DNA from: Gloeobacterales cyanobacterium | GTDB taxonomy: Bacteria > Cyanobacteriota > Cyanobacteriia > Gloeobacterales > PMM-0068 | Length of the DNA stretch: 64,000 bases | NCBI GenBank assembly: GCA_038245785.1 | Contig: JBBRSB010000022.1 | Location: 1 to 64,000 of the forward strand | Direction of reading: 5' to 3' | Shown: positions 9,803-29,398 of the stretch, in pieces | Position numbering within the stretch: position 1 is the stretch's first letter | Layout: each line of letters opens with the position of its first letter | Position numbers and translations under genes: made by a program | The notes under the pieces: generated by a model | The model's input: only the letters and a program-made list of their open reading frames with translations | What the model was told of the DNA's origin: nothing | Database searches by the model: none

Positions 9803-9905
9803 CAATACTTATGTAGGCAAGCGCTCTGAGCTGTTGCTTTTATATCAAAGCTTCTTAGACTTGTCGTCTATCCTTCAATGTTGACACTGCCGTGGAGTAT
9901 CCGTA

Positions 9906-11720
9906 GTGCTTACTCAGTCTATTATGCAAACAGTTTGGTGGATTCCTCTCTATGGCCTGATTGGGGGTGTTGCGGCCTTGCCATGGTTCCCCGGCGTAAT
10001 TCATCGCACAGGCCCTAGACCTGCTGGCTATATCAATCTTTTGATGACGACCCTGGCCTTTGTTCATAGCCTGGTAATTTTTCAAGCCACCTGGAATCAG
10101 CCCTCACAGCAGCTTTCTCTGACATGGCTCAAGGTTGCCAATCTGGACCTGAGTTTTCCGATCGAGATCTCCTCCGTAACTTTAGGGGCGGCAGTTCTGA
10201 TTACAGGTCTGAATCTGCTAGCCCAGGTCTATGCCTTGGGCTATATGGAGATGGATTGGGGCTGGGCTCGTTTCTATGGACTAATGGGAATTTTTGAAGC
10301 GGGCCTATGCGCCTTAGTCCTCTGCAATTCCTTGTTTTTCAGCTATTTCATCCTCGAAATTCTGACCTTAGGTACGTACCTTTTGGTTGGCTTTTGGTTC
10401 AATCAGCCTTTAGTGGTCACCGGGGCGCGGGATGCCTTTCTAACCAAACGGGTTGGAGACCTCTTGCTGATGATGGGCGTAGTTGCACTTTGGCCGATCA
10501 CCGGGACCTTTAACTTTGCAGAGTTGGCCCAGTGGGCGGCGACAGCGAACATAGACCCGACAACGGCTACACTTCTAGGACTTGCTTTGATGGCTGGGCC
10601 TCTAGGCAAGTGTGCTCAATTTCCCTTACACCTTTGGCTTGATGAAGCGATGGAAGGTCCGATTCCCTCCACGATTCTCCGTAACTCTTTAGTCGTAGCG
10701 GTTGGAGCTTGGGTACTGGTCGAGCTTTATCCTATTCTTTCGCTCTCACCCGTGACCTTGACGACCCTGGTTGTCATTGGTGGAATCACGGCGGTGGGCG
10801 GTTCTCTAGTGGCCATTGCTCAAATCGACATCAAACGCACACTGTCCTATTTGGTTAGCGCCTATATGGGTCTTGTATTTATTGCCGTGGGAACAGGACA
10901 ACTGGAAGCAGCGCTGCTACTGGTTTTGACCCACGCTGTATCGATGGCCCTTTTGGTAATGAGTGCTGGAGCCATAATCTGGAATAGCGTCACCCAAGAC
11001 CTCAGTCAGTATGGGGGACTTTGGTCCCGTCGTCCGGCTTCTGGCTTGGCTTTCCTCGTAGGCATAGGTGGGTTAATTGCCCTTCCGCCCCTAGGAAGTT
11101 TCTGGGCCATCTTGAAGTTAGCGGATGGACTGTGGGAAACCCAGCCGTGGTTGGTTGGACTCGTGCTCTTAGTGAACGGATTGGCTGCTTTTGGCCTGGG
11201 TCGAGTTTTTGGTCTTGTCTTTAGTGGACCACTCAAGCCGATGACCGAACGTTCACCAGAAGTTTCCTGGCAGATGGTTTTGCCAATGATGCTTTTACTG
11301 GGTTTTGCGCTCCATCTCCCTTTGGTATTGCAGTACTTGTCTCTTCTCCCGGCATGGGAAGACATCAATATCCCGCTTGCTGTGCTCCTTACTGTGTCTA
11401 GTGCCATGTCCTATATCGGCTGGCGCTTCAGACCGATTCAACTTCCTTGGCCAACCATCCAAGATGTACTCGCCAATGATTTCTACACAGCCCAAGCCTA
11501 TCGCTTGAGTATCGTTGCTGGCGTTAGCTTCATCTCACGGATTACTGCTTTTGTAGATCATTACATTGTGGACGGAGCCGTCAATTTAGTCAGTCAAATT
11601 TCTGTGGTTGGCGGTGAGGTTTTAAAGTACACCACCAGTGGCAGAATCCAGCTCTATATGCTGACGGTGTTATTTGGAGTTGTATTTATGGGTGCCATGA
11701 TGATGATGACAACTCATTAG
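9906..11720 (+). CDS. ndhF3: NDH-1(3) subunit F3
   Basis: RTGPRPAGYINL, GYMEMDWGWARF, WFNQPLVVTGARDAFLTKRVGD; upstream of ndhD3-cupA. Confidence 0.93.
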   Translation: MLTQSIMQTVWWIPLYGLIGGVAALPWFPGVIHRTGPRPAGYINLLMTTLAFVHSLVIFQATWNQPSQQLSLTWLKVANLDLSFPIEISSVTLGAAVLITGLNLLAQVYALGYMEMDWGWARFYGLMGIFEAGLCALVLCNSLFFSYFILEILTLGTYLLVGFWFNQPLVVTGARDAFLTKRVGDLLLMMGVVALWPITGTFNFAELAQWAATANIDPTTATLLGLALMAGPLGKCAQFPLHLWLDEAMEGPIPSTILRNSLVVAVGAWVLVELYPILSLSPVTLTTLVVIGGITAVGGSLVAIAQIDIKRTLSYLVSAYMGLVFIAVGTGQLEAALLLVLTHAVSMALLVMSAGAIIWNSVTQDLSQYGGLWSRRPASGLAFLVGIGGLIALPPLGSFWAILKLADGLWETQPWLVGLVLLVNGLAAFGLGRVFGLVFSGPLKPMTERSPEVSWQMVLPMMLLLGFALHLPLVLQYLSLLPAWEDINIPLAVLLTVSSAMSYIGWRFRPIQLPWPTIQDVLANDFYTAQAYRLSIVAGVSFISRITAFVDHYIVDGAVNLVSQISVVGGEVLKYTTSGRIQLYMLTVLFGVVFMGAMMMMTTH

Positions 11721-11772
11721 TAGCAAAGTAATTTTCTCTCACGTGTCCAACCAGTTCAGGAGCAGGATTCAA

Positions 11773-13275
11773 ATGTTGAGTATGTTGATTGGCTTACCTA
11801 TCCTCAGTGCTGTGATTATTGGACTTTTGTCTGACAAGATTACAGCGGCTCAGATTCGTCAGATAGCCCTAGTGATCGTCAGCTTCCTGGGCCTCTGGAC
11901 TATCTGGCTATTCAGTCAATTCAATCCAGCAGCTTCAGGGATGCAGTTTGCCGAGTTTATACCCTGGCTTCCCATCGTTGGCCTGGACTACAGCTTAGGA
12001 GTGGATGGCCTATCTCTGCCGCTGCTCGGCCTGAATGCACTACTGATCTGGATTGCTGTTTACAGTACCGACTACTCCGGTGAGCGCCCTCGACTTTATT
12101 ACTCCCTGATTTTGCTCACAAGCGCAGGGATGGCTGGTGCCTTTATTGCTCAGAACTTATTACTATTTTTCTTATTTTACGAATTGCTGCTTATCCCCCT
12201 TTATCTACTCATTGCTATTTGGGGCAGTTCAGAAAAACAGGGCTATGCCTCAATGAAATTCCTGATCTACACAGCAGTTTCTGGTATCTTAATTTTTGTA
12301 GCCTTTCTAAGCATTGCTCTCCTCAGTTCTTCGGGCAGCTTTGCGTATAATCCTCAAGCGACTCAGGGGTTATCGCAAACAACGCAACTGATTCTATTGA
12401 CTGTGGTGCTTATAGGATTTGGGATCAAAATTCCTTTGATTCCTCTACACACCTGGCTACCCGATGCCTACGTTGCTGCTTCACCCCCGATTGCAATTCT
12501 CTTAGGCGGAGTCCTGGCCAAGCTAGGGACCTATGGTCTCGTCCGGTTTGGGCTGGGTCTATTTCCTGAGACGTGGACCATCGTCGCACCTGGGCTTGCC
12601 ATTATTGGAGCGATTACGGCTATTTACGGAGCCCTTGCTGCCATTGCCCAAAAAGATATCAAACGGATGGTGGCCTACAGTTCCATCGGCCATATGGGCT
12701 ACATCCTCTTGGGCGCAGCGGCGGCGACTCCTCTAAGTCTGCTAGGCGTAGTGCTACAAATGGTCAGTCACGGAATTATCTTGGCCTTTCTATTCCATCT
12801 GATTGGAGTAATAGAAGCTAAAGTTGGCACCCGCGATTTGGATGTGCTCAATGGTCTGATGAATCCAATCCGGGGCTTACCGCTGATGAGTAGCCTCCTG
12901 GTGATCGGGGGCATGGCGAGTGCTGGAATTCCAGGCTTGGTCGGCTTTGTCTCCGAATTTCTAATTCTCCAGGGCAGCTTTGCCGCCTTTCCGATCCCAA
13001 CGCTGGTTTGTATCACCTGTAGTGGTTTAACAGCAGTCTACTTTGTAACGCTGCTCAACCGGACCTGCTTTGGCAAATTGGATAATGCTACCGCCTACTA
13101 TCCCAAAGTCCAGTGGCCAGAACGCACTCCGGCCCTGATTCTGGCAGCACTGACGCTCTTTCTTGGCATTCAACCAACCTGGCTCACGCGCTGGACCGAA
13201 CCAACCACCGATGTTATGGCAACCACCATCTCTGATGTGCATAAAGCCACCCATATTTCTACAAGCTCTCGATAA
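11773..13275 (+). CDS. ndhD3: NDH-1(3) subunit D3
   Basis: GVDGLS, PLHTWLPDAY, LNGLMNPIRGLP, LNRTCFGKLDN. Confidence 0.93.
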   Translation: MLSMLIGLPILSAVIIGLLSDKITAAQIRQIALVIVSFLGLWTIWLFSQFNPAASGMQFAEFIPWLPIVGLDYSLGVDGLSLPLLGLNALLIWIAVYSTDYSGERPRLYYSLILLTSAGMAGAFIAQNLLLFFLFYELLLIPLYLLIAIWGSSEKQGYASMKFLIYTAVSGILIFVAFLSIALLSSSGSFAYNPQATQGLSQTTQLILLTVVLIGFGIKIPLIPLHTWLPDAYVAASPPIAILLGGVLAKLGTYGLVRFGLGLFPETWTIVAPGLAIIGAITAIYGALAAIAQKDIKRMVAYSSIGHMGYILLGAAAATPLSLLGVVLQMVSHGIILAFLFHLIGVIEAKVGTRDLDVLNGLMNPIRGLPLMSSLLVIGGMASAGIPGLVGFVSEFLILQGSFAAFPIPTLVCITCSGLTAVYFVTLLNRTCFGKLDNATAYYPKVQWPERTPALILAALTLFLGIQPTWLTRWTEPTTDVMATTISDVHKATHISTSSR

Positions 13276-13301
13276 TCCGTCATCCCTAAAGAGGCACAAC
13301 C

Positions 13302-14591
13302 ATGGTTACCACGGAAACTAAGGCTAAACTGCCCCCTTCCACCCATCCTTTCGCAGAAATCATTCACCGACTGGAAGCGGGGGGAGCGATGCTTCCGGAT
13401 ACCCCAGAAAATCTGATGCAAATCATTGGTTTGTACAAAGCCTATGCGGTGCCGATGGATTTCTACTGGCGTGACCTTCTCTATATCGCCGAGCGGGAGT
13501 TTTTGAACCCCTTGCCTTTCTTCAAGTACTTCTTGCCCAAAGAGTATCTGGACCTGCACAACCACTATGCCGGGGATGATGCAGATTTGCGGATTTGGCG
13601 CGGAGAAGCGACTGCCCATCCAGAGCTTCTAGCCTATATGCAGCACGGGGAAACGTTTAAAATGCCTCGCCTGTTTCACCATCTCTGGCATGACCGCGTC
13701 AATATGGAATTTGCCGAAATGTGCATGCGGGCCATGCTCTGGCATCGAGGCATGGGCGGGCAATTCGACCCTTACTTGGACTCGGAAGAATACAAGGCCA
13801 ATGCCGACCGAGCGATTAAAGCTTATTTCAAAGGCAATCCCTTAATGCTGGGCATTCATCAAATGTTTCCAGACTTATTTCTCGAACAATGCCGTCAAAT
13901 GTCCTACTACAGCAACCTCGGTCTGTTTTGGGAAGTGATGGCTCCAGTATTCTTTGAGATGTCTGACCTCTATGATGAAGGCAAGATTAGCAGTGTCCCA
14001 GAAGCGATGGATTTTCTGGTAAATGGTATTTTTGCCATAGCGGGCCGTCCTATCTATCACCATGTCTATATTCGGGGTGAATGCTATGAAATCATCCCCA
14101 AATCCAAAGGCTTTATGTGGCTCTACGAAGCAGCCCTGCCCTATGTAGAAGCAGTTTTTTATCGCACCGCCCCTTTCCGGGGGACCAAATCCTACAATGC
14201 CCAAGCCCACCAGGTCCCGGCAGAGCAAAAGGATTTTCACTATGGAATTCTTTATGCCGATGTATTTCCCGTTGGAACTGCAGGCATCCCGCCGACTTTA
14301 CTGATGCAAGACATGATTCACTTTTTACCCCCTTATCTGGTCGAATACTATCAGAAGCATTGCCGGGGCGAAAGCGATATGCTGATTCAACTGGGCGTCA
14401 GCTTTCAACGCTCCATGTTCTGTGTTACTTCTGCAGTCATTCAGGCTTTACGACAGGCTTTGCTCTATCCACTCGATGACCCAAATCCAAGGCATCTTGC
14501 AGCGAACCGAGCTTTCTTTGAACAGCAAATGGACCGTTTTCTCCGTCCTGAAGCCCGTTTGAGAGATATTCAGCGCCAAGAATATCGGTAG
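13302..14591 (+). CDS. cupA: CO2 hydration protein CupA/ChpY
   Basis: LPPSTHPFAEIIHRLEAGG, PMDFYWRDLLYI, PFRGTKSYNAQA. Confidence 0.95.
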   Translation: MVTTETKAKLPPSTHPFAEIIHRLEAGGAMLPDTPENLMQIIGLYKAYAVPMDFYWRDLLYIAEREFLNPLPFFKYFLPKEYLDLHNHYAGDDADLRIWRGEATAHPELLAYMQHGETFKMPRLFHHLWHDRVNMEFAEMCMRAMLWHRGMGGQFDPYLDSEEYKANADRAIKAYFKGNPLMLGIHQMFPDLFLEQCRQMSYYSNLGLFWEVMAPVFFEMSDLYDEGKISSVPEAMDFLVNGIFAIAGRPIYHHVYIRGECYEIIPKSKGFMWLYEAALPYVEAVFYRTAPFRGTKSYNAQAHQVPAEQKDFHYGILYADVFPVGTAGIPPTLLMQDMIHFLPPYLVEYYQKHCRGESDMLIQLGVSFQRSMFCVTSAVIQALRQALLYPLDDPNPRHLAANRAFFEQQMDRFLRPEARLRDIQRQEYR

Positions 14592-14613
14592 TTATTTAAG
14601 ACAAGAGAATCTG

Positions 14614-15309
14614 ATGTCCCGCATCCACCCCTACCAACCCGTTTTACTGCGACTACTCCATAGTCTTAATTCTTTTCTCATCCTGGCAGCCTTGATTAGC
14701 GGATTTTGGGTGTACAACACCTATGACGGAAGACTAGGAAAACTTCCGCTTCCCAGGCTTGAAGGCATCATTGATATCCACGGGACCTTTGGTTTAGTCT
14801 TCCTTTTTGTACTGCCTATCTTCGCTCTATACAGTTTCCGAACGGGCCAAAAATGGCTCATGCAATCTAATTCTTTTTCACAATTAGCTCGAGTGAACCA
14901 ACCTGTGTGGTGGCTTGGTCTGCAAAGAATCACTAATACAGGAATTTTATTAGCAGCAAGCTTCTCTTTGCTGACTGGCAGAATGATGAAGGAAGATTGG
15001 TTGCCCGATGGAGATCTAGACCAGGTTTGGTATCTGCTGCATCTGACAGGTTGGTCAGTGCTGGCAGCTTGCCTTTTTATTCATCTTTTAACCCATCTTA
15101 AAGTGGGTGGAGTATCATTACTTCTCTCTATGACAGACCTAAAAGTTCAGCCAGGAGACAGTCTCGGAGATAGCTTCAAAAAGATGATCAGCAGTCAGCA
15201 TCATTCACCTTCCAAATCACAAGTAAGCAAAATGTTTCCCATAAAAGCAGCTGAATTTGTCGTCTTGGTGAATATCTTCTCCGCAATTCTACTGCCTATA
15301 ATTCAGTAA
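14614..15309 (+). CDS. Cytochrome b/b6-domain membrane protein (Ni/Fe-hydrogenase cytochrome b-like)
   Basis: PYQPVLLRLLH, DIHGTFG, WYLLH, FIHLLTH: His-bearing transmembrane helices. Confidence 0.7.
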   Translation: MSRIHPYQPVLLRLLHSLNSFLILAALISGFWVYNTYDGRLGKLPLPRLEGIIDIHGTFGLVFLFVLPIFALYSFRTGQKWLMQSNSFSQLARVNQPVWWLGLQRITNTGILLAASFSLLTGRMMKEDWLPDGDLDQVWYLLHLTGWSVLAACLFIHLLTHLKVGGVSLLLSMTDLKVQPGDSLGDSFKKMISSQHHSPSKSQVSKMFPIKAAEFVVLVNIFSAILLPIIQ

Positions 15310-15376
15310 GTAACAAAGTGCGTGTATAAAGCATCTATATAGGTGTGAATTATCAATGAAGGTGTGTGGTGAGGAG

Positions 15377-15778
15377 ATGGCTGATATTGTTGATGTTGCA
15401 GTTAGTTCGGGGGCTTTTCAGACCTTAGTGACCGCAGTGCAAGCGGCTGGTTTGGTAGAAACGCTCAAAAGTCCAGGGCCTTTTACTGTTTTTGCTCCTA
15501 ATGACGAGGCTTTTGCCAAGTTACCCCCTGGGACTATTACGACATTGGTTCAAAATATTCCTCAGTTAACCAGGATTTTGACCTATCACGTAGTCTCTGG
15601 CTGTTTTCTACAGGCTGACCTTGCAAAACTCGGCACCGTTACGTCCATAGAAGGCTCACCAATTATTCTTGATTTCACAGAGGGTTTTGAAGTCAAAAAT
15701 GCCACTGTGGTGATAGCGGATGTCATTGTCGACAATGGCGTAATTCACGTTATTGATAACGTGCTTTTGATGGGCTAG
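15377..15778 (+). CDS. cupS: Fasciclin-domain protein CupS
   Basis: MADIVDVAV...[31 protein letters not shown]...[17 protein letters not shown]. Confidence 0.85.
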
Positions 15779-16802: not shown

Positions 16803-17009
16803 CTAAATGGTGAGTGAGCCTTGCCAGCGGCGATAGGCATTTTCAATAACGGAGGGCGGAACGTGGAGTTGAACTGCCAGTTCACGAACCGTAGGCAGCT
16901 GATACTCGTGGTGCAGGAGTCCAGCTTCTTGAAGAATGACCAGCTGTTGTAGTATTTGCTCCTCTGGATCGAGAGAACTCGACCAATCCAGACGAAAAGC
17001 TTTCAACAT
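16803..17009 (-). CDS. Small GntR-type winged-helix protein
   Basis: QLPTVRELAVQLHVPPSVIENAY. Confidence 0.7.
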   Translation of the reverse strand: MLKAFRLDWSSSLDPEEQILQQLVILQEAGLLHHEYQLPTVRELAVQLHVPPSVIENAYRRWQGSLTI

Positions 17010-17306: not shown

Positions 17307-17528
17307 TTACTGCAGGGGAAAGCTGTGCTTAAGGTTCGCTGCGCTGTTTTTCAGGAGCCATCGAGCCGCCAGTACATCTCCTTCATGCCAAGCCAAGTGC
17401 TCAATAGTTTCTAAGAAGAGTTCTGCCACTCGGTCACCCTGCATACATTCCTGTAGCTGAAGGAGGATACTTCTTGCCTGATCCACGTTACGGGTTCTAA
17501 TCGCGCTGGCTAGTGCATCGGTCGACAT
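17307..17528 (-). CDS. Small hypothetical protein
   Basis: 73-aa helical ORF with an AGGA RBS; no family recognised. Confidence 0.4.
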   Translation of the reverse strand: MSTDALASAIRTRNVDQARSILLQLQECMQGDRVAELFLETIEHLAWHEGDVLAARWLLKNSAANLKHSFPLQ

Positions 17529-17675
17529 AGGGATTTCCTAGGACTCATGCCCTTTTTTAGCACAATTATCAGTTTCCCATGGGCTTCTTACCGCCTTTGT
17601 TCATGCTGTTTAGACAATATTTAAAAACCGACAAATTCAGTTACAAATCAAGCGTGTTTGCTTACATTTCAAGAC

Positions 17676-17742
17676 ATAGACTACAATCTATGATTATTAT
17701 TAAATAAATCGACTTTTCTCTATACGAGTTAGCCTCTACTAT
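17676..17742 (+). promoter_or_regulatory. Promoter of the ABC operon with NdhR/CmpR-type operator
   Basis: ATAG actacaat CTAT (17676-17691), ATCGACTTTTCTCTAT, -10 TACTAT at 17737; spacing identical to the ndhF3 promoter. Confidence 0.75.
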
Positions 17743-17890
17743 CTAAGGAATGCAACTCAAGAGTAGCTTCGCTCTTGAATTTCTATCTGCGCAGCGAATG
17801 CGAAAAGCCTGTTTGATGCGCCATTTTCGTTGGGGCTTTAGACATGCAACTCCAAACATCTAATCAACTTTCCGTACGTGAGGATCTCCG

Positions 17891-19231
17891 ATGACAGATG
17901 AACAGTTTAAAACAGAAAATCAGCCTGCATCTTCTGAATCTTTGCTATGGAAACCAAGTCGGAGGGATTTTCTCCTTGCAGCTGGGGCCACAACCTTAGG
18001 ATTACTTTGGCCTACTGGCTATGCCAGCGCTCAAGCGGATACCCCGGAGATTACGAAGGCCAAGATTGGCTTTGTCGGCCAAACTGATGCAGCCCCAATC
18101 ATCATTGCCAAGGAGAAAGGCTATTTCGCTAAATACGGGATGAAAGATGTCGAAGTCGCGAAGCAGCCTTCCTGGGGAGTGATTCGGGACAATCTGGAAC
18201 TCGGCTCCACGGGCGGAGGGTTAGATGTAGCGATGGTCTTGAGACCGATGCCCTTTTTGATGGCCTTAGGAACCATTACCAAGGGAAACAAGAAGCTGCC
18301 GATGTACGTACCTTTACAACTCAACATCGACGGTCAAGGCATCACGCTTGCTAATGCGTTTAAGGATGATAAAGCCCGCTTAAAAAGCACCGCTATTGAA
18401 GCCAAAGTAGACAAGGCCAAGGCTGATGGCAAGAAATATAAGTTTGCCAGCACCTTTAAGGGCGGGAGCAGTGACCTGATGATGCGTTACTGGCTGGCTG
18501 CTGGGGGTATCGACCCCGATAAGGATATCGAAACGGTGGTCGTGCCTGGACCACAGCTCGTTGCCAATATGAAAGTCGGGAGTCTGGATGGCTTCTGTGT
18601 TGGGGACCCCTGGCACAACCGGGCTATCAGCGAGAAGATTGGCTACACGGCCTGCGTCAGTGGTGAATTGTGGAAAGACCATCCAGAAAAAGCGCTGGCA
18701 ATGCGGGCCGATTGGACCGATAAGAATCCTAAAGCTGCGCGTGCCATCGTTGCCGCTATCCAAGAAGCCCAGCAGTGGTGCGACAACATGGACAATCGCG
18801 ATGAGTTGATCGGGATCCTCTCTAAACGAGGCTATGCCAATGTGCCTGCAGACAACATGAGCCGATTGAAGGGTGTAATCGATTACGGGGATGGTCGCGT
18901 GGTCAAAGACAGTCCTTACCTGATGCGCTATTGGAAAGCCAATGCTTCCTATCCTTACGAGAGCCACGACCTCTGGTTCATGACCGAGAACGCCCGTTGG
19001 GGATTTATCAAGCCCGATTTTAAAGCCATTCGCAAAGTGGTGGCCGATGTGAATCGAGCAGACCTCTGGCAAAGTGCCGCCAAGCTCGCTGGAGTGCCTG
19101 CAGCCAGTATTCCAACCAAGACTAGCCGAGGAGTAGAGACCTTTTTTGATGGCACCAAGTTCGACCCTGCCAAGCCCGAGGCTTATTTGAAGAGTCTCAA
19201 GATAAAGAGCGTTAAAGCGGAAATCATCTAG
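17891..19231 (+). CDS. NrtA/CmpA-family ABC substrate-binding protein (NrtA-like residues), Tat signal
   Basis: SRRDFLL Tat motif; TDAAPIIIAKEKG, SWGVIRDNL, GQGI, WKDHPEK; no lipobox Cys. Confidence 0.9.
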   Translation: MTDEQFKTENQPASSESLLWKPSRRDFLLAAGATTLGLLWPTGYASAQADTPEITKAKIGFVGQTDAAPIIIAKEKGYFAKYGMKDVEVAKQPSWGVIRDNLELGSTGGGLDVAMVLRPMPFLMALGTITKGNKKLPMYVPLQLNIDGQGITLANAFKDDKARLKSTAIEAKVDKAKADGKKYKFASTFKGGSSDLMMRYWLAAGGIDPDKDIETVVVPGPQLVANMKVGSLDGFCVGDPWHNRAISEKIGYTACVSGELWKDHPEKALAMRADWTDKNPKAARAIVAAIQEAQQWCDNMDNRDELIGILSKRGYANVPADNMSRLKGVIDYGDGRVVKDSPYLMRYWKANASYPYESHDLWFMTENARWGFIKPDFKAIRKVVADVNRADLWQSAAKLAGVPAASIPTKTSRGVETFFDGTKFDPAKPEAYLKSLKIKSVKAEII

Positions 19232-19255
19232 CCCTTTTATTTTTGGAGACTTATC

Positions 19256-20095
19256 ATGACTGCTGTTTTACCTGGAACTTCTACGGTCCAAAAGCAATCT
19301 CAAAAATCTTCCTGGATGCCTTCCAAAAGTATTCAGAAAACGATTGCTCCCGTGATTGCTACTGCTATTTTTTTAGGGATTTGGCAATTACTGACTTCTA
19401 GTCCCGAAGCAACGATGCCTGGACCGATTAAGGTGGTCACCGAGACTTGGCCATTGATTACAGACCCCTTCTATCAGGGCTCGGGGACAGACCAAGGGTT
19501 ATTCTGGCAAATTGCAGCGAGCCTACAGCGGGTCGCCATCGGATTTTCACTGTCAGCCCTAGTGGGGATTACAGTTGGCATTCTGATTGGGGCCAATCCC
19601 TTGCTCTACTCTGCGGTAGACCCTCTCTTTCAGGTACTGCGCACGATTCCGCCCCTGGCCTGGTTGCCTATCGCCCTAGCGGCAATCCAACAGTCTGAAC
19701 CTGCAGCCCTATTCGTGATTTTCATCACGGCTATCTGGCCGATTATCATCAACACCGCTGTTGGGGTGCAACAGATTCCCCAGGATTACAACAATGTTGC
19801 CCGTGTTTTGCGACTTTCCAAAAGCAAGTATTTCTTCAAAGTCCTGTTGCCTTCTGCCCTTCCTTATATTTTCACCGGGCTGAAAATTGGGATTGGTCTC
19901 TCATGGTTGGCGATTGTTGCAGCTGAAATGCTTATTGGGGGAGTTGGTATCGGCTTTTTCATCTGGGATGCCTACAACGCAGCCAAAATTAGCGACATCA
20001 TCCTCGCCCTCTTCTATGTCGGCCTTGTCGGTTTACTCTTGGACAAACTCGTGAGCTTTGTTGGCTCTCGGCTGGTACCGGAAGAACAAAAGTAA
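19256..20095 (+). CDS. Nitrate/bicarbonate ABC permease (NrtB-like)
   Basis: LRTIPPLAWLPI, FITAIWPIIINT, GLSWLAIVAAEM. Confidence 0.9.
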   Translation: MTAVLPGTSTVQKQSQKSSWMPSKSIQKTIAPVIATAIFLGIWQLLTSSPEATMPGPIKVVTETWPLITDPFYQGSGTDQGLFWQIAASLQRVAIGFSLSALVGITVGILIGANPLLYSAVDPLFQVLRTIPPLAWLPIALAAIQQSEPAALFVIFITAIWPIIINTAVGVQQIPQDYNNVARVLRLSKSKYFFKVLLPSALPYIFTGLKIGIGLSWLAIVAAEMLIGGVGIGFFIWDAYNAAKISDIILALFYVGLVGLLLDKLVSFVGSRLVPEEQK

Positions 20096-20161
20096 AACTG
20101 GCTCTTCCCCCTTAAAGGGTAAAATCGCATCGAATTTCAGTATTAGTACTAGGAGAACAGC

Positions 20162-20899
20162 GTGCAAAAAATCAATCGGCCAATCTATCTATCCAGAAGA
20201 AGCTTGGTCAAGGTGGCAGGAGTGAGTTTGATGGGGGCTGGGGCATTTACGGCGGGGCTTGCGGGCACGGGCGCTATCGCCGCTGAACCCCCTACGTCCA
20301 AGGGAGAAAAGGGCGAAAACGACATCACTCCTGAGGAGGCATTAAAGAACTTGATGGACGGCAACAAGCGTTTCGTGGAGGGGAAGACACAATCCCCCAA
20401 CCGGACGATGGCTCGTTTGAAAGAAGTCGCCAAAGGGCAAAAGCCCTATGCCGCCTTCCTCGGTTGTGCCGATTCTCGGGTGCCGATTGAAATCCTATTT
20501 GACCAGGGATTTGGCAATGTATTCGTATGCCGCGTGGCTGGAAACGCAGCGACCTCTGAAGAGACGGGTAGTTTGGAGTTTGGCGCAGCCGTGCTAGGAA
20601 CCAAAGTGCTCATGGTCTTGGGACATGAATATTGTGGTGCAGTAAAAGCTGCCTTATCGGGAGAAGCGGTGCCTGGTTCTATTGCTGCGGTCTTGGAGCA
20701 AATGAAACCTGCTGTCGCCATGGTCAAGGATAAAAAAGCTAAAGGGGCCTTGGATGAGGCAATCGCCAACAACGTCAAGCTTCAGGTAGCCAAGCTCAAA
20801 GAGTCTCCCGTCCTGGGGGCTTTGGTGAAAGAAGGCAAGCTGAAAATTGTCGGCGCGGTCTATGACCTGGATGAAGGCAATGTAAAACTGCTGGCGTAG
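20162..20899 (+). CDS. Beta-class carbonic anhydrase with Tat signal (EcaB-like)
   Basis: SRRSLVK Tat motif; GNKRF, CADSRVP, RVAGN, GHEYCGAV zinc ligands. Confidence 0.92.
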   Translation: MQKINRPIYLSRRSLVKVAGVSLMGAGAFTAGLAGTGAIAAEPPTSKGEKGENDITPEEALKNLMDGNKRFVEGKTQSPNRTMARLKEVAKGQKPYAAFLGCADSRVPIEILFDQGFGNVFVCRVAGNAATSEETGSLEFGAAVLGTKVLMVLGHEYCGAVKAALSGEAVPGSIAAVLEQMKPAVAMVKDKKAKGALDEAIANNVKLQVAKLKESPVLGALVKEGKLKIVGAVYDLDEGNVKLLA

Positions 20900-20901
20900 C
20901 T

Positions 20902-21149
20902 ACCCCTCAGTCCCTTCGGGACAGCTCCCCTTAGAAGGGAGCCTATTCGGGGGACAGAAGAGGCTCGGATTTAGATATAGATGCTGCCAAAGCGATAGCT
21001 CACTGCCTCTTGCGGACTCTAGAGATGAGATTGTTTGGGTTGTGAAGGTTATCACATTCCCTCAGTTCTATGCTCACACCTGCAGTTTTCTCTCCTCAAA
21101 AGGCCCAGGCTCCCCTTCGAGGGGAGCTGTCCCGTAGGGACTGAGGGGT
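20902..21149. repeat. Inverted-repeat element (MITE/REPIN-like), ~43-bp arms
   Basis: ACCCCTCAGTCCCTTCGGGACAGCTCCCC...GGAGCCT at 20902-20944 and its near-perfect reverse complement at 21107-21149. Confidence 0.75.
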
Positions 21150-21181
21150 GGAAATCTTTTAACTTAACAAGGAGTCCTGAT

Positions 21182-23188
21182 ATGTCTGTATTTGTTGAAG
21201 TGGAGCAAATTGATAAGGTCTTCCCGCTTGCAGATGGAGGGAGCTATGTTGCCCTTAAAAATATAGATCTGACTATCCGTAAGGGCGAGTTTGTTACGCT
21301 CATCGGTCATTCTGGCTGCGGTAAATCGACCTTGCTCAATATTGTGGCCGGATTGGATAGTCCGACGGAGGGTGGCGTAGTTTTAGCAGGGCAGACCGTC
21401 ACCGAACCTGGACCAGACCGGATGGTCGTTTTTCAGAACTATTCACTTTTGCCCTGGCTAACAGTATACGAAAACATTGCTCTGGCTGTAGATGAGGTGA
21501 TGACTACGCTCTCTAAGAGTGAACGGCAGAACTTGATTGAGCACTACATGAACCTAGTAGGACTCAAGGCCGCTGCGGATAAGCGACCTGGTCAGCTGTC
21601 TGGAGGGATGAAGCAGCGGGTGGCAATTGCACGGGCTTTAGCCATTCGTCCGCAATTGCTGCTTTTGGATGAACCCTTTGGCGCTTTGGATGCGCTAACT
21701 AGAGGTAATTTACAAGAGCAGTTGATGAAAATCTGCGAAGAAACTCAGGCTACATGCCTGATGGTTACCCATGATGTGGATGAAGCCTTACTCCTATCTG
21801 ACCGCGTGGTCATGCTCACCAATGGACCAGAATCTCATATCGGCCAGATTCTGGAAGTAGCCATTCCTCGACCCCGTGAACGCATGGAAGTAGTCAATCA
21901 TCCTAGCTATTACAGTCTGCGCAGCGAGATTATTTACTTCCTCAACCAGCAAAAGAAAGCCAAGCAGCGGGCTCGTAAACCCGCTCCTATCGCCCGTCAT
22001 GGATTGGAAAAAATCAATCTGGAAATCGGCTTTCTACCCCTGACTGCCTGTGCTCCCCTCGTCGTCGCCAAGGAGAAAGGATTTTTCACCAAGCATGGCC
22101 TGGATGAAGTAAATCTAGTGCGCGAACCCAACTGGCGAGCGATCACCGATGGCATGGTCACCAATGACTTAGATGCTGCTCAAATGCCTGCCGGGATGCC
22201 CTTGTGGTTCTCGCTGGGAGGCGTAGACGAAAAGCCCCTCTCCGTAGTGACCTCCCTGACGCTCACCCGAAATGGCAATGCCATTACTTTGGCGAAACGC
22301 CTCTATGACCGTGGAGTGCATACCCTGGCTGATTTCAAGCGGGTATTACGTCAATCTCCTGAAGAGCGACACACCTTAGGCATGGTTCATCCGGCTTCGA
22401 TGCACAATCTCTTGTTGCGCTATTGGCTGGCCGCTGGCGGTATCGATCCGGACCATGATGTGGATTTGACAACCATCCCTCCTGCTCAGATGGTTTCTAA
22501 TCTTCAAGCCGGCAATATTGATGGCTACTGTGTCGGAGAGCCCTGGAATTTCCGGGCCGCTCTAGAAGGAATTGGTTTTACGGCGGCAACGGACCTGGAA
22601 ATCTGGCCGGGACATCCGGGAAAAGTTCTTGGCGTAAGAGAAGACTGGGCTGCTGCTCATCCAAATACCCATTTGGCGCTGGTGAAAGCGCTCTTGGAAG
22701 CCTGTCAGTACTGTAACGACCAACAGAATGGCCCTGAAATTCGTGAACTGCTGTGCCGACCAGAATATCTGGACACTGAACCCCAATACATCCAATTGGC
22801 CGATTCTACACCCACGGTCTGTGATGCAAGCAACCCCGTTCAGTATGCCCACCATCTGTTTTTCGGAGATGGAGTCAATCGCCCAAGTCGCACAGAACAA
22901 CTCTGGATCATGACCCAGATGGCTCGTTGGGGAACAGTGCCTTTTCCAAGAAATTGGGTGGAAATTCTCGAACGGCTCTGTCGGGTAGATGTCTTCAGTA
23001 CCGCTGCGCGCGAAGTTGGGCTATCGGATATCAGCTATACCCGTATTCCGATTCAACTCAATCTTCAAGAACCTCCAGAAGCGGCTTTCAATCCTGAGGA
23101 CCCGATTAGCTACCTCAATAGCTTGGATATAAAGCATGAGGTCTATATCGCAGAAGTGATTGCCCCTAGCCTTGCCCGTTCTGCTTAG
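21182..23188 (+). CDS. cmpC: ABC ATPase with C-terminal solute-binding domain (CmpC-like)
   Basis: GHSGCGKST, LSGGM; YSLRSEIIYF, LTACAP, HPGKVLG, RPSRTE are CmpC-type; ATG 21182 after AAGGAG. Confidence 0.7.
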   Translation: MSVFVEVEQIDKVFPLADGGSYVALKNIDLTIRKGEFVTLIGHSGCGKSTLLNIVAGLDSPTEGGVVLAGQTVTEPGPDRMVVFQNYSLLPWLTVYENIALAVDEVMTTLSKSERQNLIEHYMNLVGLKAAADKRPGQLSGGMKQRVAIARALAIRPQLLLLDEPFGALDALTRGNLQEQLMKICEETQATCLMVTHDVDEALLLSDRVVMLTNGPESHIGQILEVAIPRPRERMEVVNHPSYYSLRSEIIYFLNQQKKAKQRARKPAPIARHGLEKINLEIGFLPLTACAPLVVAKEKGFFTKHGLDEVNLVREPNWRAITDGMVTNDLDAAQMPAGMPLWFSLGGVDEKPLSVVTSLTLTRNGNAITLAKRLYDRGVHTLADFKRVLRQSPEERHTLGMVHPASMHNLLLRYWLAAGGIDPDHDVDLTTIPPAQMVSNLQAGNIDGYCVGEPWNFRAALEGIGFTAATDLEIWPGHPGKVLGVREDWAAAHPNTHLALVKALLEACQYCNDQQNGPEIRELLCRPEYLDTEPQYIQLADSTPTVCDASNPVQYAHHLFFGDGVNRPSRTEQLWIMTQMARWGTVPFPRNWVEILERLCRVDVFSTAAREVGLSDISYTRIPIQLNLQEPPEAAFNPEDPISYLNSLDIKHEVYIAEVIAPSLARSA

Positions 23189-23206
23189 AAACCTCTAACT
23201 CTCTAA

Positions 23207-23324
23207 CGCCCCCTTTCGGCTGACGCTCAGGGAAGCCTAAATCCCCCAATACTGGTGGACTTTGAGTTACGTGCTCCGCACACGCAGACGACCAGAACCC
23301 CCAGAATTGGGGGGCAGGGGGGCG
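23207..23324. repeat. C-rich/G-rich short inverted repeat element
   Basis: CGCCCCC...ATCCCCCAATACTGGTGGACTTTGAG...CCCCCAGAATTGGGGGGCAGGGGGGCG; same family as 34821-34913. Confidence 0.65.
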
Positions 23325-23372
23325 AAATCCAGCAATCTCCAACTCTTCACTTAACTAACAGGAGAATGAACC

Positions 23373-24215
23373 ATGCAAACCGAAACCAGTACATCAACAC
23401 AATCTGTCAGCACTGCAGCTAACTCGACCCCATTTCTAGTCGTTGAGAATGTCTCTAAGGTCTACCCCACAGCCAAAGGGTCCTACACCGTTTTGGAAGA
23501 TGTGAACCTGACGGTCCAAGAGGGCGAGTTTATCTGCATCATTGGTCACTCAGGCTGTGGCAAATCAACGCTGCTCAATATGGTTGCCGGATTTTCAGAA
23601 CCCACAGAAGGATCGGTACGGCTCAAGAACCAGACGATTACCGAACCAGGGCCAGACCGGATGATGGTCTTTCAGAACTATTCATTGTTGCCTTGGCTAA
23701 CCGTTGCCGAGAATGTTCTGCTAGCGGTCGATTCTGTCTATCCTGATAAGCCCCTTTCCGAACAGATGGCTATTGTCCATGAGCATCTCGCGCTGGTGGG
23801 ATTGTCAGAAGCCGCTCAGAAGAAACCAACCCAGCTATCAGGGGGAATGCGTCAGCGCTTGGGTATTGCCCGTGCCCTATCGATTCGCCCAGAAATCCTG
23901 ATTTTGGATGAGCCCTTCGGCGCTCTAGATGCAATTACCAAGGAAGAACTGCAAGAAGAGTTGCTAAAAATCTGGAATGACCACAAGGCTACGGTCTTGA
24001 TGATTACCCATGATATTGATGAAGCTCTATTCCTTGCAGACCGTCTGGTGATGATGACCAATGGCCCTTCGGCCCATATCGGAGAAGTCTTAGATATTCC
24101 ATTTCGCCGTCCCCGCAATCGCACCCGCATTATGGAAGACCCTGAGTACTACAACTTGCGCAACTATGCTTTGGACTTCCTCTATCGTCGCTATGCCCAT
24201 GCCGTAGTTGATTAG
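23373..24215 (+). CDS. Nitrate/bicarbonate ABC ATPase D subunit (CmpD/NrtD)
   Basis: GHSGCGKST, DRMMVFQNY, DAITKEELQEELL, YNLRNYALDFL. Confidence 0.9.
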   Translation: MQTETSTSTQSVSTAANSTPFLVVENVSKVYPTAKGSYTVLEDVNLTVQEGEFICIIGHSGCGKSTLLNMVAGFSEPTEGSVRLKNQTITEPGPDRMMVFQNYSLLPWLTVAENVLLAVDSVYPDKPLSEQMAIVHEHLALVGLSEAAQKKPTQLSGGMRQRLGIARALSIRPEILILDEPFGALDAITKEELQEELLKIWNDHKATVLMITHDIDEALFLADRLVMMTNGPSAHIGEVLDIPFRRPRNRTRIMEDPEYYNLRNYALDFLYRRYAHAVVD

Positions 24216-24267
24216 CCGGAGGAGCTCGTTGCGCTGTGACACAGCGCAACGAGCATAGGGAGGAAGG

Positions 24268-24624
24268 TTAAGTCGCGTAATAATAGCGCTCATGGACGAC
24301 CTTTCCATCTTTCCACTTTTGCACAGAGACTTGATCATGGGTCTGCTTGCCCCACTCCTTGTGGGTATAGTCTGCAAACCACTCCGAGATAATCACATCT
24401 TCTCCAAAGGCAACATTCTTTAGAGCAATGCCTCGGAATTCAACAACCTTGGCCATAAAATCCAGCTCCCGCTCGCGGTTAGCCGCTTTTCCGACGGTTG
24501 GAGGATTTTCATTTTCTTGCATGACTACGTCATCGCCGTAATACTTTTCAAAGGCCTCCATGGCCTTGCCTTCCATTACTAGATTCTTGATATCTTCAAA
24601 GGCAGTTTTCAGATCGGTACTCAT
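24268..24624 (-). CDS. SnoaL/NTF2-like protein
   Basis: AFEKYYGDDVVMQENE...GKAANRERE...QVSVQKWKDGKVVHERYYY; ATG 24624 after GAGGA. Confidence 0.85.
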   Translation of the reverse strand: MSTDLKTAFEDIKNLVMEGKAMEAFEKYYGDDVVMQENENPPTVGKAANRERELDFMAKVVEFRGIALKNVAFGEDVIISEWFADYTHKEWGKQTHDQVSVQKWKDGKVVHERYYYAT

Positions 24625-26223: not shown

Positions 26224-26490
26224 TTAATGACTAAGCATCCATGGGCGCTCATGGCGATGAGACTGCCTCACTTTTGGAGCTATTTCCTTAGGTTCACGGC
26301 TGACTAGACGCGGTTCCGTTTTTTCTTCTATCCGCTTGGAGCGCGAACCCAAATGCACATTAGGGCTTGAGTAGATGCGTTTTGCGATGGTCTGACAGTT
26401 TGGGCAGAGCATCGGGTCACTGGATTCGCTGAATCCGCGCCACTGCTCAAAGAGTCCACAGCTCCTACACTGAAACTCATAAAGAGGCAT
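26224..26490 (-). CDS. fmdB: FmdB-family zinc-ribbon protein
   Basis: MPLYEFQCRSCG...CPNC...RPWMLSH; follows fmdA. Confidence 0.85.
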   Translation of the reverse strand: MPLYEFQCRSCGLFEQWRGFSESSDPMLCPNCQTIAKRIYSSPNVHLGSRSKRIEEKTEPRLVSREPKEIAPKVRQSHRHERPWMLSH

Positions 26491-26522
26491 AGGGATTTCC
26501 TTCTCCGAGGTGTTTTTGAGAT

Positions 26523-27698
26523 TTATTTGGGGAGGACGTTTTGTTCAAAGATGGCTGTCGGGACTGCAATCGTACAGCAGGCATTTGGGATATCAACAAT
26601 GCCGCTGATCCTTCCCTCACAGGGCGCAGACCCTAAAAGCAAATAGATCTGTTCGCCAGTGAAGCCAAAGTTTTTGAAATACTCAATCGCATTCAGGCAG
26701 GCTCTGCGATAGGCAATATGAGCGTCTAGATAGTGCTGTTTGCCCGAAAATTCATCTACGGAAATGCCCTCAAAAACTAAGTACTCTGAGTAGCGAGGCT
26801 CGACGGGACCGGGTTTGAAGATTGGATTGGTCATGCCATACTTTGCGACTCCACCTTTAATGATGTCCACGCTAAGGTCGAGATAGCCTGCCATCTCAAT
26901 CGCACCGCAGAAAGAAATTTCTCCATCCCCTTGAGAAAAGTGAATGTCTCCCATGGAGAGTTTGGCCCCTTTCACATAGACCGGGAAATAGACCTTGGAG
27001 CCTTTTGAAAGGTTCTTAATATCGCAGTTTCCACCATGCTCGCGGGGTGGGACCGTACGCGCTGCCTCCTTAGCCACTCGGTCAAACTCTGCCCCCTTCA
27101 ACGAGCCAAGAATGGCATTGGTTGGATTCGGAAGGGCAGCAAGGGGCGGCACCCTATCTGGATTGGTCGCTACTAAATCTGCTTCTCGTTTATTCCAGGT
27201 TGCCAATAATTCATGGGAAGGAGCACAACCAATCAAACCTGGATGGGGAATTCCCGCAAACTTGACCCCAGGGATATGACGGGAGGAAGCGTAAATTCCG
27301 TGAAGATCCCAGATTGCTTTTTGGGCAGTGGGATAGTGGTCGGTCAGAAAACCACCGCCATTCTCTTTAGAAAAAAGCCCCGTAAAGCCCCATTCATAAT
27401 CGGGCAAAGTTCCCACATCTAAGATATCGACCACAAGAATATCACCGGGTTCGGCTCCTTCTACGTGGATAGGTCCACTAAGCACATGGACAACCGTTAA
27501 ATCGACATCGCGGACATCATCAGGACTGTCATTGTTCTTGATTTGTCCATCGGTCCAGTCTTTGCACTCAATCCGAAATACAGCTCCAGGCTTAACAGAA
27601 ATGATGGCGGGAATATCGGGATGCCAACGATTGTGGCCAACCAGGTCCTGTTCGGTAAATGGTTTATTCAGGTCTACGTTGAATAGAACTTCAGGCAT
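26523..27698 (-). CDS. fmdA: Formamidase (acetamidase/formamidase family)
   Basis: HNRWHPDIP, CKDWTDGQI, VPPREHGGNCDIKNL, GDIHFSQGDGEI. Confidence 0.92.
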   Translation of the reverse strand: MPEVLFNVDLNKPFTEQDLVGHNRWHPDIPAIISVKPGAVFRIECKDWTDGQIKNNDSPDDVRDVDLTVVHVLSGPIHVEGAEPGDILVVDILDVGTLPDYEWGFTGLFSKENGGGFLTDHYPTAQKAIWDLHGIYASSRHIPGVKFAGIPHPGLIGCAPSHELLATWNKREADLVATNPDRVPPLAALPNPTNAILGSLKGAEFDRVAKEAARTVPPREHGGNCDIKNLSKGSKVYFPVYVKGAKLSMGDIHFSQGDGEISFCGAIEMAGYLDLSVDIIKGGVAKYGMTNPIFKPGPVEPRYSEYLVFEGISVDEFSGKQHYLDAHIAYRRACLNAIEYFKNFGFTGEQIYLLLGSAPCEGRISGIVDIPNACCTIAVPTAIFEQNVLPK

Positions 27699-27760
27699 AT
27701 TTGTCTCCTCGTAGCGTATTGGATACCTATTGGATATTGAAAGCTATCTCTTCTTATTGC

Positions 27761-29398
27761 TTACGTCATTGCCGTTGTTTTACAGCTGTCATGACAGACA
27801 GCATCCAAACTGCAACAGAGAGAACAGATAGGTCCCTCATGGAAAGGACAATGGGCCATGTCTTCTTTTTCATAGGAGAGGTTGCATACGGAGCACTCCA
27901 CCGCGCCGATATCACCAGCTAAACGATATTGAGTATCCTCACGGGCGATGTAGTACTTACCTTTGGTAAAGAAGGCAATCAGCGGTGATAGAACAAAAGC
28001 CAAACCTAGGGCAATAAATGTAGAGAATGCCTGCGCTACTGGACCCATAAATCCGAAGAAGGCAATGATTGATATCACCGAGGCAATAATCATTGAGCCA
28101 AAGCCAACGGGGTTGAAGTTATAGAGGTGAGCCCGTTTGAACTCGATATAGCTTGGACTAATCCCCAAAGGCTTATTGATAACAAGGTCTGCCACCAATG
28201 CCCCAATCCAGGCAATCGCCACATTGGAGTAGAACCCCAGTACATAGAGCAGGGTATCGAATACGCCCAGCAACATTAGGGACAGGGCAATCGCAACGTT
28301 GAAGACTAGCCAAACCACGCGGCCAGGGTGAGCATGGGTGAGGCGGGAAAAGAAGTTGGACCAGGACAGCGAACCAGAGTAGGCATTGGTGACATTGATT
28401 TTGACTTGGGACAGAATCACAAAGAACGTAGCTACCGCTAGGACCACTCCGGGATTGGAGAATACCGCTTGGAAACCACTGATATACATCTGGATGGGCT
28501 CATTTGCCTTTTCTAGAGGTATGCCTTTGCTCGCCGCTAGGGACGTGAAGAAGGACCCCCCCCACTGCTTAAAGGCTCCCAGAAATACCCAGCCTGGACC
28601 GGCAAGAATAACCGCTAGCCACCATTTGACCTTATTTTCCTGTGTCTCATCGGGCATAAACCGTAAATAGTCTACCTGCTCACCAATCTGAGCAATCAAA
28701 GACAGAGCAACACCACAGGCCGCTCCAAAGAGCAAGGGATCGAATGCCGCACCACTTTTGGACTTTCCTGCAAAGCTGAGCCAGTTGGACCAAGACTCTG
28801 GCTGCTTAGAAAGAACGAAAATAAAAGGCAGAATCATCAGCGTTAGCCAGACTGGCTGCGTCCAGACTTGAAGCTGTGAAAGCAGAGTCATTCCATAGAC
28901 AACTAGGGGAATAATGACAATTGAAGAAACAATATATCCAAGCCAAAGAGGTAAACCAAAATAAATCTCAAAAGCCTGGGCCATGATCGCCCCTTCTAAG
29001 GCAAAGAAGATAAAAGTAAAGGAAGCATATACAAGAGAAGTGATTGTTGAGCCGATATAGCCAAAGCCCGCTCCTCGTGTTAGCAAATCCATATCAATAC
29101 TGTACTTAGCTGAATAGTAAGCAATCGGTAAACCCGTTAGAAATATAATGATGGCAGAAACTAAAATAGCCCAGAAAGCATTGGAGAAGCCGGAGCTAAT
29201 CGCGATGGAGCCACCGATGGCAAAGTCTGCCAAGTAGGATATTCCACCCAACGCAGCTGTGGCTACCGTGTATTCTGACCATCTCCTGAATGACTTCGGT
29301 GCGTAACGCAAGGAATAGTCTTCCAGCATTTCATTATTAACCCAAGAATTGTACTTCCTCTTTGCTTTTACAGAGGGGGTTGTGCTTGCTTCTTGCAT
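27761..29398 (-). CDS. NCS1/purine-cytosine-permease-like membrane protein with Cys-rich C-tail
   Basis: LEDYSLRYAP, DMDLLTRGAGFG, QIGEQVDYLRFMP, NVTNAYSGSL; many TM segments; CSVC...CPFH..ICSLCCSLD..CHDSC. Confidence 0.8.
   Translation of the reverse strand: MQEASTTPSVKAKRKYNSWVNNEMLEDYSLRYAPKSFRRWSEYTVATAALGGISYLADFAIGGSIAISSGFSNAFWAILVSAIIIFLTGLPIAYYSAKYSIDMDLLTRGAGFGYIGSTITSLVYASFTFIFFALEGAIMAQAFEIYFGLPLWLGYIVSSIVIIPLVVYGMTLLSQLQVWTQPVWLTLMILPFIFVLSKQPESWSNWLSFAGKSKSGAAFDPLLFGAACGVALSLIAQIGEQVDYLRFMPDETQENKVKWWLAVILAGPGWVFLGAFKQWGGSFFTSLAASKGIPLEKANEPIQMYISGFQAVFSNPGVVLAVATFFVILSQVKINVTNAYSGSLSWSNFFSRLTHAHPGRVVWLVFNVAIALSLMLLGVFDTLLYVLGFYSNVAIAWIGALVADLVINKPLGISPSYIEFKRAHLYNFNPVGFGSMIIASVISIIAFFGFMGPVAQAFSTFIALGLAFVLSPLIAFFTKGKYYIAREDTQYRLAGDIGAVECSVCNLSYEKEDMAHCPFHEGPICSLCCSLDAVCHDSCKTTAMT

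Follow-up and report, generated by a model that had tools for sequence, protein, structure and literature searches.

A probable Gloeobacterales form of the BCT1 bicarbonate importer with a putative third class of substrate-binding protein and a twin-arginine-signal carbonic anhydrase

Which anion is imported by an ATP-binding cassette (ABC) transporter whose binding protein and permease resemble those of nitrate transporters, whose ATPase C resembles that of a bicarbonate transporter and whose promoter carries the operator of low-CO2 genes? This question is raised by a five-gene operon in a 64,000-nt stretch of DNA (the window; positions 1 to 64,000 of contig JBBRSB010000022.1, assembly GCA_038245785.1), whose host we infer to be a member of the Gloeobacterales, an order whose cultured members generally lack thylakoids. 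Our analyses show that the operon is real and conserved, and that it is most likely a previously unremarked variant of BCT1 (CmpABCD), one that works like BCT1 while its binding protein falls outside the CmpA group. As the initial annotation had it, the gene order is substrate-binding protein (SBP), permease, beta-carbonic anhydrase (CA) with a twin-arginine translocation (Tat) signal, ATPase C and ATPase D, and both coordinates and strands were confirmed:

17891-19231, forward strand: SBP of the Q-type described below, in the cmpA position, with a twin-arginine signal and without a lipobox
19256-20095, forward strand: permease in the cmpB position, with NrtB-like residues
20162-20899, forward strand: beta-CA with a twin-arginine signal and intact CADSR and HEYC zinc motifs
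21182-23188, forward strand: CmpC orthologue, an ATPase with a C-terminal regulatory domain
23373-24215, forward strand: ATPase D, for which CmpD and NrtD are not separable

In family scans the SBP matched PF13379, the permease fell in the NtrB family, the CA was recognised as a beta-CA and both ATPases as NtrCD-family proteins, ATPase C having a further PF13379 domain. The closest named homologues of the SBP are those of Anthocerotibacter panamensis (69%), Aphanocapsa lilacina HA4352-LM1 (70%) and a Gloeobacteraceae metagenome-assembled genome (MAG; 64%). Searches of the host genome, which is 98% complete, turned up neither the KaiA nor the CAAD family.

First, we find that the SBP carries a pocket of its own. 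Against solved structures it scored 483 bits with NrtA and 395 bits with CmpA, and its translation contains the GQGI and HPEK motifs, described earlier as NrtA-type, together with GSSD. Of 39 columns diagnostic for Cmp versus Nrt, it agrees with Nrt in 15, with Cmp in 6 and with neither of the two in the other 18. The nitrate ligands of NrtA are given as Trp102, Gln155, His196, Gly240 and Lys269 (PMC13204499), and CmpA is reported to have Glu at the position of this Lys (PMC13287603) and Gln198 at that of His196 (PMC11349869). In an alignment to 2g29, with the numbering anchored on H196 and K269, the SBP keeps W95, Q149, G238 and K267, that is 4 of the 5 nitrate ligands, and has S194 for His196, Q64 for Leu71 and G220 for Pro222. 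The calcium ligands of CmpA are missing, and its Glu271 and Gln198 are replaced by K267 and S194. Gln64, which was not among the residues singled out in the initial annotation, defines the class: a strict Gln motif occurs in 66 of 171 SBP sequences (the query and 170 retrieved); the Lys is retained in 65 of these 66, and the His gives way to Ser or Gly in 65, with one row off-pattern at each of the two sites. In addition, Q64, Q149, G238 and K267 are invariant across an alignment of 43 sequences that had been selected on the motif.

A 51-row tree under a mixture model agrees with this division: Q-type proteins (support 100/99), CmpA (100/100) and the nitrate-type proteins, 29 in all (96/96), each form a clade, and the Q-type lies outside the nitrate-type one. 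On sequence grounds, the SBP belongs to a third class, the Q-type, whose pocket differs from both the nitrate and the bicarbonate type known so far. The earlier suggestion that a nitrate module had been repurposed into a hybrid found no firm support: the Q-type lies outside the nitrate-type proteins in this tree, and rooting with distant outgroups gave a free tree with the Q-type basal (88), while a constraint uniting Q-type and CmpA scored 4.9 higher (approximately unbiased test, p-AU 0.56). Under LG+G4, joining all Q-type proteins with the order's NrtA came out 9.2 log units above the quick free tree (p-AU 0.60), whereas a tree that united the order's NrtA with the Q-type proteins of the order only was rejected (p-AU 0.038). 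An AlphaFold model of the SBP (pLDDT 86) superposes on 2g29 with a TM score of 0.97 and a root-mean-square deviation of 1.3 A, and it fits NrtA and CmpA about equally. The lipobox Cys is absent, as stated at the outset, but its absence is a lineage trait and was rejected as a special feature of this protein: the true NrtA of this genome also lacks it, as do the other SBPs of the order that were compared and (LKGC) one canonical CmpA (genome G016). Many Q-type SBPs of the Oscillatoria/Microcoleus type carry the GCLGNPP start of CmpA. Separately, the proteins of three loci (L062, G001:C280; L056; L061) make up a subtype of the Q-type, in which the pocket Trp is replaced by Tyr and the loop contains PAG, and the Q copy of genome G001 groups with those of G008 and G011 and not with its own genus, a hint of transfer within the order.

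Second, the remaining subunits were compared with both families. The permease scored 366 bits against NrtB and 334 bits against CmpB, sides with Nrt at 10 of the 11 diagnostic columns and has none of the 11 CmpB-diagnostic residues, which agrees with its initial description as NrtB-like. Because the permeases of Oscillatoria-type Q operons are also Nrt-like (7 of 11 columns), A and B seem to travel together. Of the channel residues named in PMC13287603, R129, L134 and L218 are kept and K210 replaces R210; the same source describes the Cmp and Nrt channels as nearly identical. In the free tree the permease was placed with Nrt permeases, its grouping with CmpB had a p-AU of 0.46 and no constraint was rejected. 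ATPase C, in turn, scored 1047 bits against CmpC and 934 bits against NrtC, is Cmp-like at 10 of 12 diagnostic columns and contains the motifs LTACAP, HPGK and RPSRTE. In a tree of 47 rows, a full C being absent for four rows, all Q and cmp operons form one clade of 20 rows (SH-aLRT 100), in which the order's members are sister to crown CmpC and four Oscillatoria-type Q operons are nested inside crown CmpC. By these relationships ATPase C is a CmpC orthologue, in line with the initial reading. It keeps the nitrate-sensing residues W318, H408, G452 and K481 and the lock residue R314 (W319 and R315 in the reference; PMC13287603). ATPase D offers no Cmp/Nrt diagnostic column and its tree is unresolved. 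Of the per-subunit phylogenies proposed earlier, that of C placed it with CmpC and that of the SBP gave a clade of its own, while those of the permease and D did not separate Cmp from Nrt. Elsewhere in the genome, an orphan Tat-signal protein (L010:7830-9116, G000:C9:94829-96115) shares 43% identity with the NrtC/CmpC regulatory tail and has no permease beside it.

Third, the upstream region resembles those of low-CO2 genes. The consensus reported for NdhR is ATAG-N8-CTAT, found upstream of targets among which are ndhR itself and the ndhF3 operon (PMC13249358), and such boxes occur at three places in the window:

17676-17745, forward strand: NdhR-type operator/promoter, with a perfect ATAG-N8-CTAT at 17676-17691, a 16-nt spacer and a degenerate second site at 17708-17723
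17737-17742, forward strand: putative -10-like hexamer
8323-9267, reverse strand: LysR regulator, closest solved structure 5y2v, with its own box at 9279-9294
9736-15778, forward strand: operator copy at 9736, then the ndhF3-ndhD3-cupA cluster and a fasciclin gene; low-CO2 uptake genes with the same box

We take 5y2v to be NdhR/CcmR, and the LysR gene likely controls the operon. A degenerate second site follows 16 nt after each of the boxes at 17676, 9736 (ndhF3) and 9279 (LysR), and this layout, written as a pattern after these sites had been seen, matches only three places in the genome. For the 70 nt from 17676, a span picked after the match was seen, the best ungapped matches on both strands of the whole genome are the ndhF3 promoter (42/70) and the site upstream of the LysR gene (40/70), and the best unrelated site reaches 39/70. 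When the whole spacers of the operon and of ndhF3 were aligned with gaps, the score was reached by 235 of 1000 shuffles and is thus not significant; therefore, what the initial annotation called a copy of the ndhF3 promoter is a shared operator layout and not a copied promoter.

Comparison across loci is consistent with this assignment. A perfect box lies at most 700 nt upstream of 10 of the order's 10 Q operons, of 2 of 7 canonical cmp operons and of none of 9 nrt operons, and in genome G011 one box region is common to the Q operon and a divergent ndhF3. NtcA-like sites, scored with what we assume to be the NtcA motif, occur in 1 of 10 Q promoters versus 6 of 9 nrt promoters. The Q operons of three genomes (G004, G006 and G010) lie between ndhF4-ndhD4-cupB and carboxysome genes (ccmM), and nrt paralogues adjoin nitrate reductase in 7 of 8 loci. 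Together, these patterns support a predicted low-carbon LysR control of the operon. As further observations, a cytochrome b561-like gene (14614-15309) is inserted between cupA and the fasciclin gene and is not in that place in G006 or G011, and another perfect NdhR-type box lies in a spacer between two genes at G000:C13:83012.

Fourth, the operon occupies a place that CmpA leaves empty. The host genome contains only two A-B-C-D operons, that of the window and one on another contig (C3), which has an NtcA-like site and nirBD nearby and whose SBP retains every NrtA ligand and scores 550 bits against NrtA. As reported at first, nirA, narB and cynS are absent from the window; nirA, nitrate reductase and cynS are on other contigs (C1, C14 and C4), and the nitrate reductase-like gene is accompanied by a NarK-family transporter, away from the window operon. 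The separate nrt operon that the initial annotation had suggested looking for is thus present and canonical CmpA is not, with no CmpA match above 55% in any of 14 genomes of the order; all SBP matches in these genomes are Q or NrtA loci. Beside the nrt operon, the nirB-nirD NADH-type nitrite reductase genes (L009:1875-4808, G000:C3) score above NCBIfam cut-offs; these genes are uncommon in cyanobacteria, and the host also has the ferredoxin nirA. On another contig, sbtA-sbtB lies directly upstream of ccmK-ccmK-ccmL-ccmM-like genes (L311, G000:C9:110490-115550; labels assigned by eye), with no NdhR-type box in the 550 nt upstream of sbtA.

The Q-type was found in 10 of the 14 order genomes, the four without it being 93-95% complete drafts, and the CmpA motif in 56 of 121 genomes of the class and in 0 of the 8 order genomes among them. 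Outside the order, the Q-type occurs in Oscillatoria sp. PCC 10802, Microcoleus vaginatus WJT46-NPBG5 and three MAGs. All 10 genomes in the family of G034 have it and none has CmpA; in the family of G032, 19 of 41 genomes matched, 14 with CmpA, 2 with the Q-type and without CmpA, 3 with NrtA only and none with both (several NrtA rows were classed by their motifs, and genome completeness is not given). Overall, none of 22 Q-type genomes (10 of the order and 12 Oscillatoria/Microcoleus-related) has CmpA. None of 80 loci in a metagenome scan was Q-type, and a GQTD pattern matched only two short non-SBP frames in 387 non-order genomes, a measure of rarity that is inexact as the pattern misses the GIIG, GLIG and GFLG variants. 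Genomes G003, G004 and G006 have neither an SbtA nor a SulP-family match; of the three known kinds of bicarbonate transporter, this operon is therefore the only candidate left to them. Because the genome has a separate nrt operon and no CmpA, and the operon has a CmpC-clade ATPase, an NdhR-type box and neighbours from the CO2-concentrating mechanism (CCM), we consider that it most likely stands in for canonical BCT1 under low-CO2 control, as the initial annotation had proposed, and that it is probably the Gloeobacterales form of BCT1 (cmp), a bicarbonate importer.

The role of the CA is less clear-cut. The protein has a twin-arginine leader, read by eye, and the Cys-x-Asp-x-Arg and His-x-x-Cys zinc motifs, and of the 10 orthologous operons 7 have a Tat-type CA after B and before C, where the short intergenic gaps would fit a single transcript. 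The window CA is 42-48% identical to the six other operon CAs and 52-57% identical to Nostoc/Microcoleus CAs, and a test for one clade of operon CAs was rejected (p-AU 7e-6); two CA lineages thus hold the same slot, through independent recruitment or in-place replacement. A 9-nt direct repeat flanks the gene (20092-20100 and 20882-20890), and in genome G002 (L053, G002:C140) the CA has been deleted across this repeat, with the gene's last codons left behind; no beta-CA was found in that 97% complete genome. Carriage of the CA by a miniature inverted-repeat transposable element (MITE) was considered and rejected, G002 showing loss through the short repeat instead. In G001, the same CA stands alone behind an NdhR-type box, beside the same upstream sequence. 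All six other CA-bearing genomes lack SbtA and all three without an operon CA have it; the window genome has both. The CA would thus be a part of the low-carbon regulon that is repeatedly tied to the importer and yet dispensable. In a crown genome, with looser linkage, sbtA and a Tat beta-CA lie beside a canonical cmp operon and ndhF3 (L152, G024:C15).

It is quite possible, if somewhat short of even, that the CA does not serve the importer, and either supplies the NDH-1 CO2 pump by converting bicarbonate to CO2 in a periplasm that has been acidified or belongs to the low-carbon regulon as a member that the cell can do without. The CO2 channel of NdhF3 opens from the lumen side (PMC13249358), EcaB binds CupA/B (PMC10096703) and, in cells without thylakoids, such as those of Gloeobacter (PMC7281370), the periplasm would take the place of the lumen; moreover, G001 keeps the CA alone behind its box and G002 has deleted it. 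Against this, two CA lineages sit in the slot between permease and C and not in the ndhF3 cluster. Between a CA that feeds the importer and one that feeds the NDH-1 pump or is a passenger, we regard the choice as close to even; the role of exported CAs is described as still undefined (PMC10096703).

Several points weigh against a bicarbonate importer, or against a large role for the CA. The Lys, which 65 of 66 Q-type proteins retain, is described as the determinant for nitrate, with Glu in CmpA (PMC13287603), and both SBP and permease resemble Nrt more than Cmp; such Nrt-like residues may be the ancestral state. Only 2 of 5 Q loci outside the order have a perfect box within the same 700 nt, and the exclusion of CmpA by the Q-type rests on about three lineages, the genomes being kin and not independent. 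The CA is absent from 3 of the 10 orthologous operons and from the four mapped Oscillatoria/Microcoleus-type Q loci; in addition, an inhibitor of external CA barely altered photosynthesis, G. violaceus included (PMC13281935), and extra external CA gave S. elongatus no benefit (PMC11360081).

An importer under carbon control whose substrate is some other small anion, or bicarbonate together with nitrate or nitrite, and which was placed under NdhR to balance carbon and nitrogen, would be in line with the retained Lys267, Gln149, Trp95 and Gly238 of the nitrate site, with the missing CmpA calcium ligands and with an NrtB-like permease, Cmp and Nrt channels being nearly the same (PMC13287603). We consider this unlikely, since 65 of 66 Q-type proteins have another residue in place of His196, separate nitrate systems are present, CmpA is replaced one-for-one and G003, G004 and G006 would be left with no known bicarbonate transporter. 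That the operon is a second, nitrogen-controlled nitrate/nitrite transporter seems very improbable: the top database labels are nitrate/nitrite and the NCBIfam ntrB and ntrCD models, which may not separate Cmp from Nrt, pass their cut-offs on the operon proteins, but NtcA-like sites are confined to 1 of 10 Q promoters versus 6 of 9 nrt promoters and C falls in the CmpC clade. The cyn operons of E. coli pair a beta-CA with cyanase. An importer of cyanate with a cynT-like CA is nevertheless the least probable case of all, since, although the host's cynS has no adjacent ABC transporter, cynS was not found in G004, G006, G008 and G010, which keep the operon and its CA, the CA has an export signal, the operator is of the NdhR type and the order's CynA proteins adjoin cynS and form their own group (bioRxiv 10.64898/2026.10.08.757548).

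For the bicarbonate importer that we favour, we infer the substrate, the role of Q64, calcium independence, co-transcription and the location and direction of the CA from sequence, and the system may work as follows. The neighbouring NdhR-type regulator would repress the operon until scarcity of inorganic carbon switches it on. A soluble, Tat-exported Q-type SBP would then capture bicarbonate without calcium, with K267, Q149, W95 and the G238 backbone holding the charged oxygens as in NrtA, which itself seats one nitrate oxygen in a hydrophobic cleft (PMC4755225). The invariant Q64, Leu in NrtA, could accept a hydrogen bond from the bicarbonate hydroxyl, and the Lys would replace calcium as the counter-charge. 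Leu71 and Pro222 presumably line the NrtA cleft. The permease and CmpC/D would carry bicarbonate inward while the CmpC tail still senses nitrate, and the periplasmic CA would equilibrate CO2 and bicarbonate so that leaked or incoming CO2 is imported as bicarbonate. More tentatively, and with less than even confidence, the Q-type could be the surviving ancestral BCT1, whose calcium-free Lys/Gln pocket predates the calcium-dependent CmpA of thylakoid-bearing cyanobacteria, which would work with a periplasmic CA as a pump for leak recapture in cells whose periplasm also serves as lumen, and which was later swapped back into the cmp operons of some Oscillatoria/Microcoleus relatives.

The spacers of the operon and its downstream flank contain three further elements:

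20902-21149, no strand: MITE-like element with 43-nt terminal inverted repeats, a passenger, with matches at 46 genome places
23190-23354, no strand: dispersed repeat in the C-D spacer, a recent insertion, at 34 genome places
24224-24254, no strand: perfect 15-nt inverted repeat 3' of D

The last of these is a possible terminator shared with the convergent gene. The repeat at 23190-23354 is skipped in related contigs from sequencing runs X2-X4 and the permease-CA junction recurs in DNA contigs from two other runs of one study; no DNA contig from other runs spans the whole operon, and no RNA run was among the sequencing runs listed as containing it. A consensus scan of 17400-24400 for promoters and terminators gave 6 promoter-like sites versus 6.2 expected, with no internal promoter standing out, and the leader RNA had a folding z of -0.96 and no Rfam match. 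Around the operon, the window holds a 73-aa open reading frame (ORF) without a Pfam match (17307-17528, reverse strand), in a region conserved upstream of the lone CA of G001, a 68-aa GntR-like ORF (16803-17009, reverse), and, at 26224-29398 (reverse), a formamidase, a small zinc-ribbon-like gene and a 545-aa membrane protein without a Pfam or NCBIfam match. A 1392-aa protein (35100-39278, reverse) joins an N-terminus like methylthioadenosine/S-adenosylhomocysteine (MTA/SAH) nucleosidases to TPR repeats, an architecture that we believe is known from defence or signalling proteins.

The rule taught for this family separates nitrate from bicarbonate binding by Lys versus Glu plus calcium. If our reading is true, a conserved class that retains the Lys and yet takes the place of CmpA would show that bicarbonate can be captured by a second kind of chemistry. 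One purified protein would then be enough to test where BCT1 came from and how active uptake of bicarbonate began on the earliest branch of the cyanobacteria. Exported CAs would gain a concrete partner and a natural knockout (G002), and CCM inventories would probably be wrong for genomes whose Q-type proteins are called nitrate-binding in databases. A soluble, lipid-free SBP may also ease the engineering of BCT1 in chloroplasts. In a literature search that left most subscription papers outside, we found no description of the Lys-keeping Gln-type class, of the exclusion of CmpA or of a CA inside the operon; the SBP tree of bioRxiv 10.64898/2026.10.08.757548 and the alignments of PMC11349869 and PMC13287603 could include Q-type sequences.

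Finally, we compare the operon with known systems. With CynABD(S) it shares the SBP superfamily (PF13379), and differs in having no linkage to cynS and a C subunit with a regulatory tail, our trees being without a characterised CynA. Like exported beta-CAs of the EcaB type, the window CA has a twin-arginine leader and intact zinc motifs, but it is encoded in a transporter operon under an NdhR-type box, and Synechocystis slr0051 is at most a candidate orthologue. NrtABCD (PDB 2g29, 8wm7) has the same SBP fold, the equivalents of Trp102, Gln155, Gly240 and Lys269 and a similar permease, whereas His196 is changed to Ser, Leu71 to Gln and Pro222 to Gly in the window SBP, which falls in a separate clade; the C subunit is CmpC, no nir or nar genes are nearby and the site is of the NdhR and not the NtcA type. 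The system that the operon most likely represents is BCT1/CmpABCD of Synechococcus PCC 7942, Synechocystis PCC 6803 and Pseudanabaena Chao 1811 (PDB 2i48, 9u9z). Unlike BCT1, the window operon has an SBP with Lys for Glu271 and Ser for Gln198 and without the STGDPW and HPEE motifs and the lipobox, a permease without any of the 11 CmpB-diagnostic residues and a Tat CA inside the operon, although in Synechocystis, too, B and C of the cmp operon are separated by an additional gene, slr0042 (PMC7281370). Like BCT1, it has the A-B-C-D layout, a CmpC-clade ATPase with a nitrate-sensing tail, a low-carbon LysR operator and a CCM neighbourhood.

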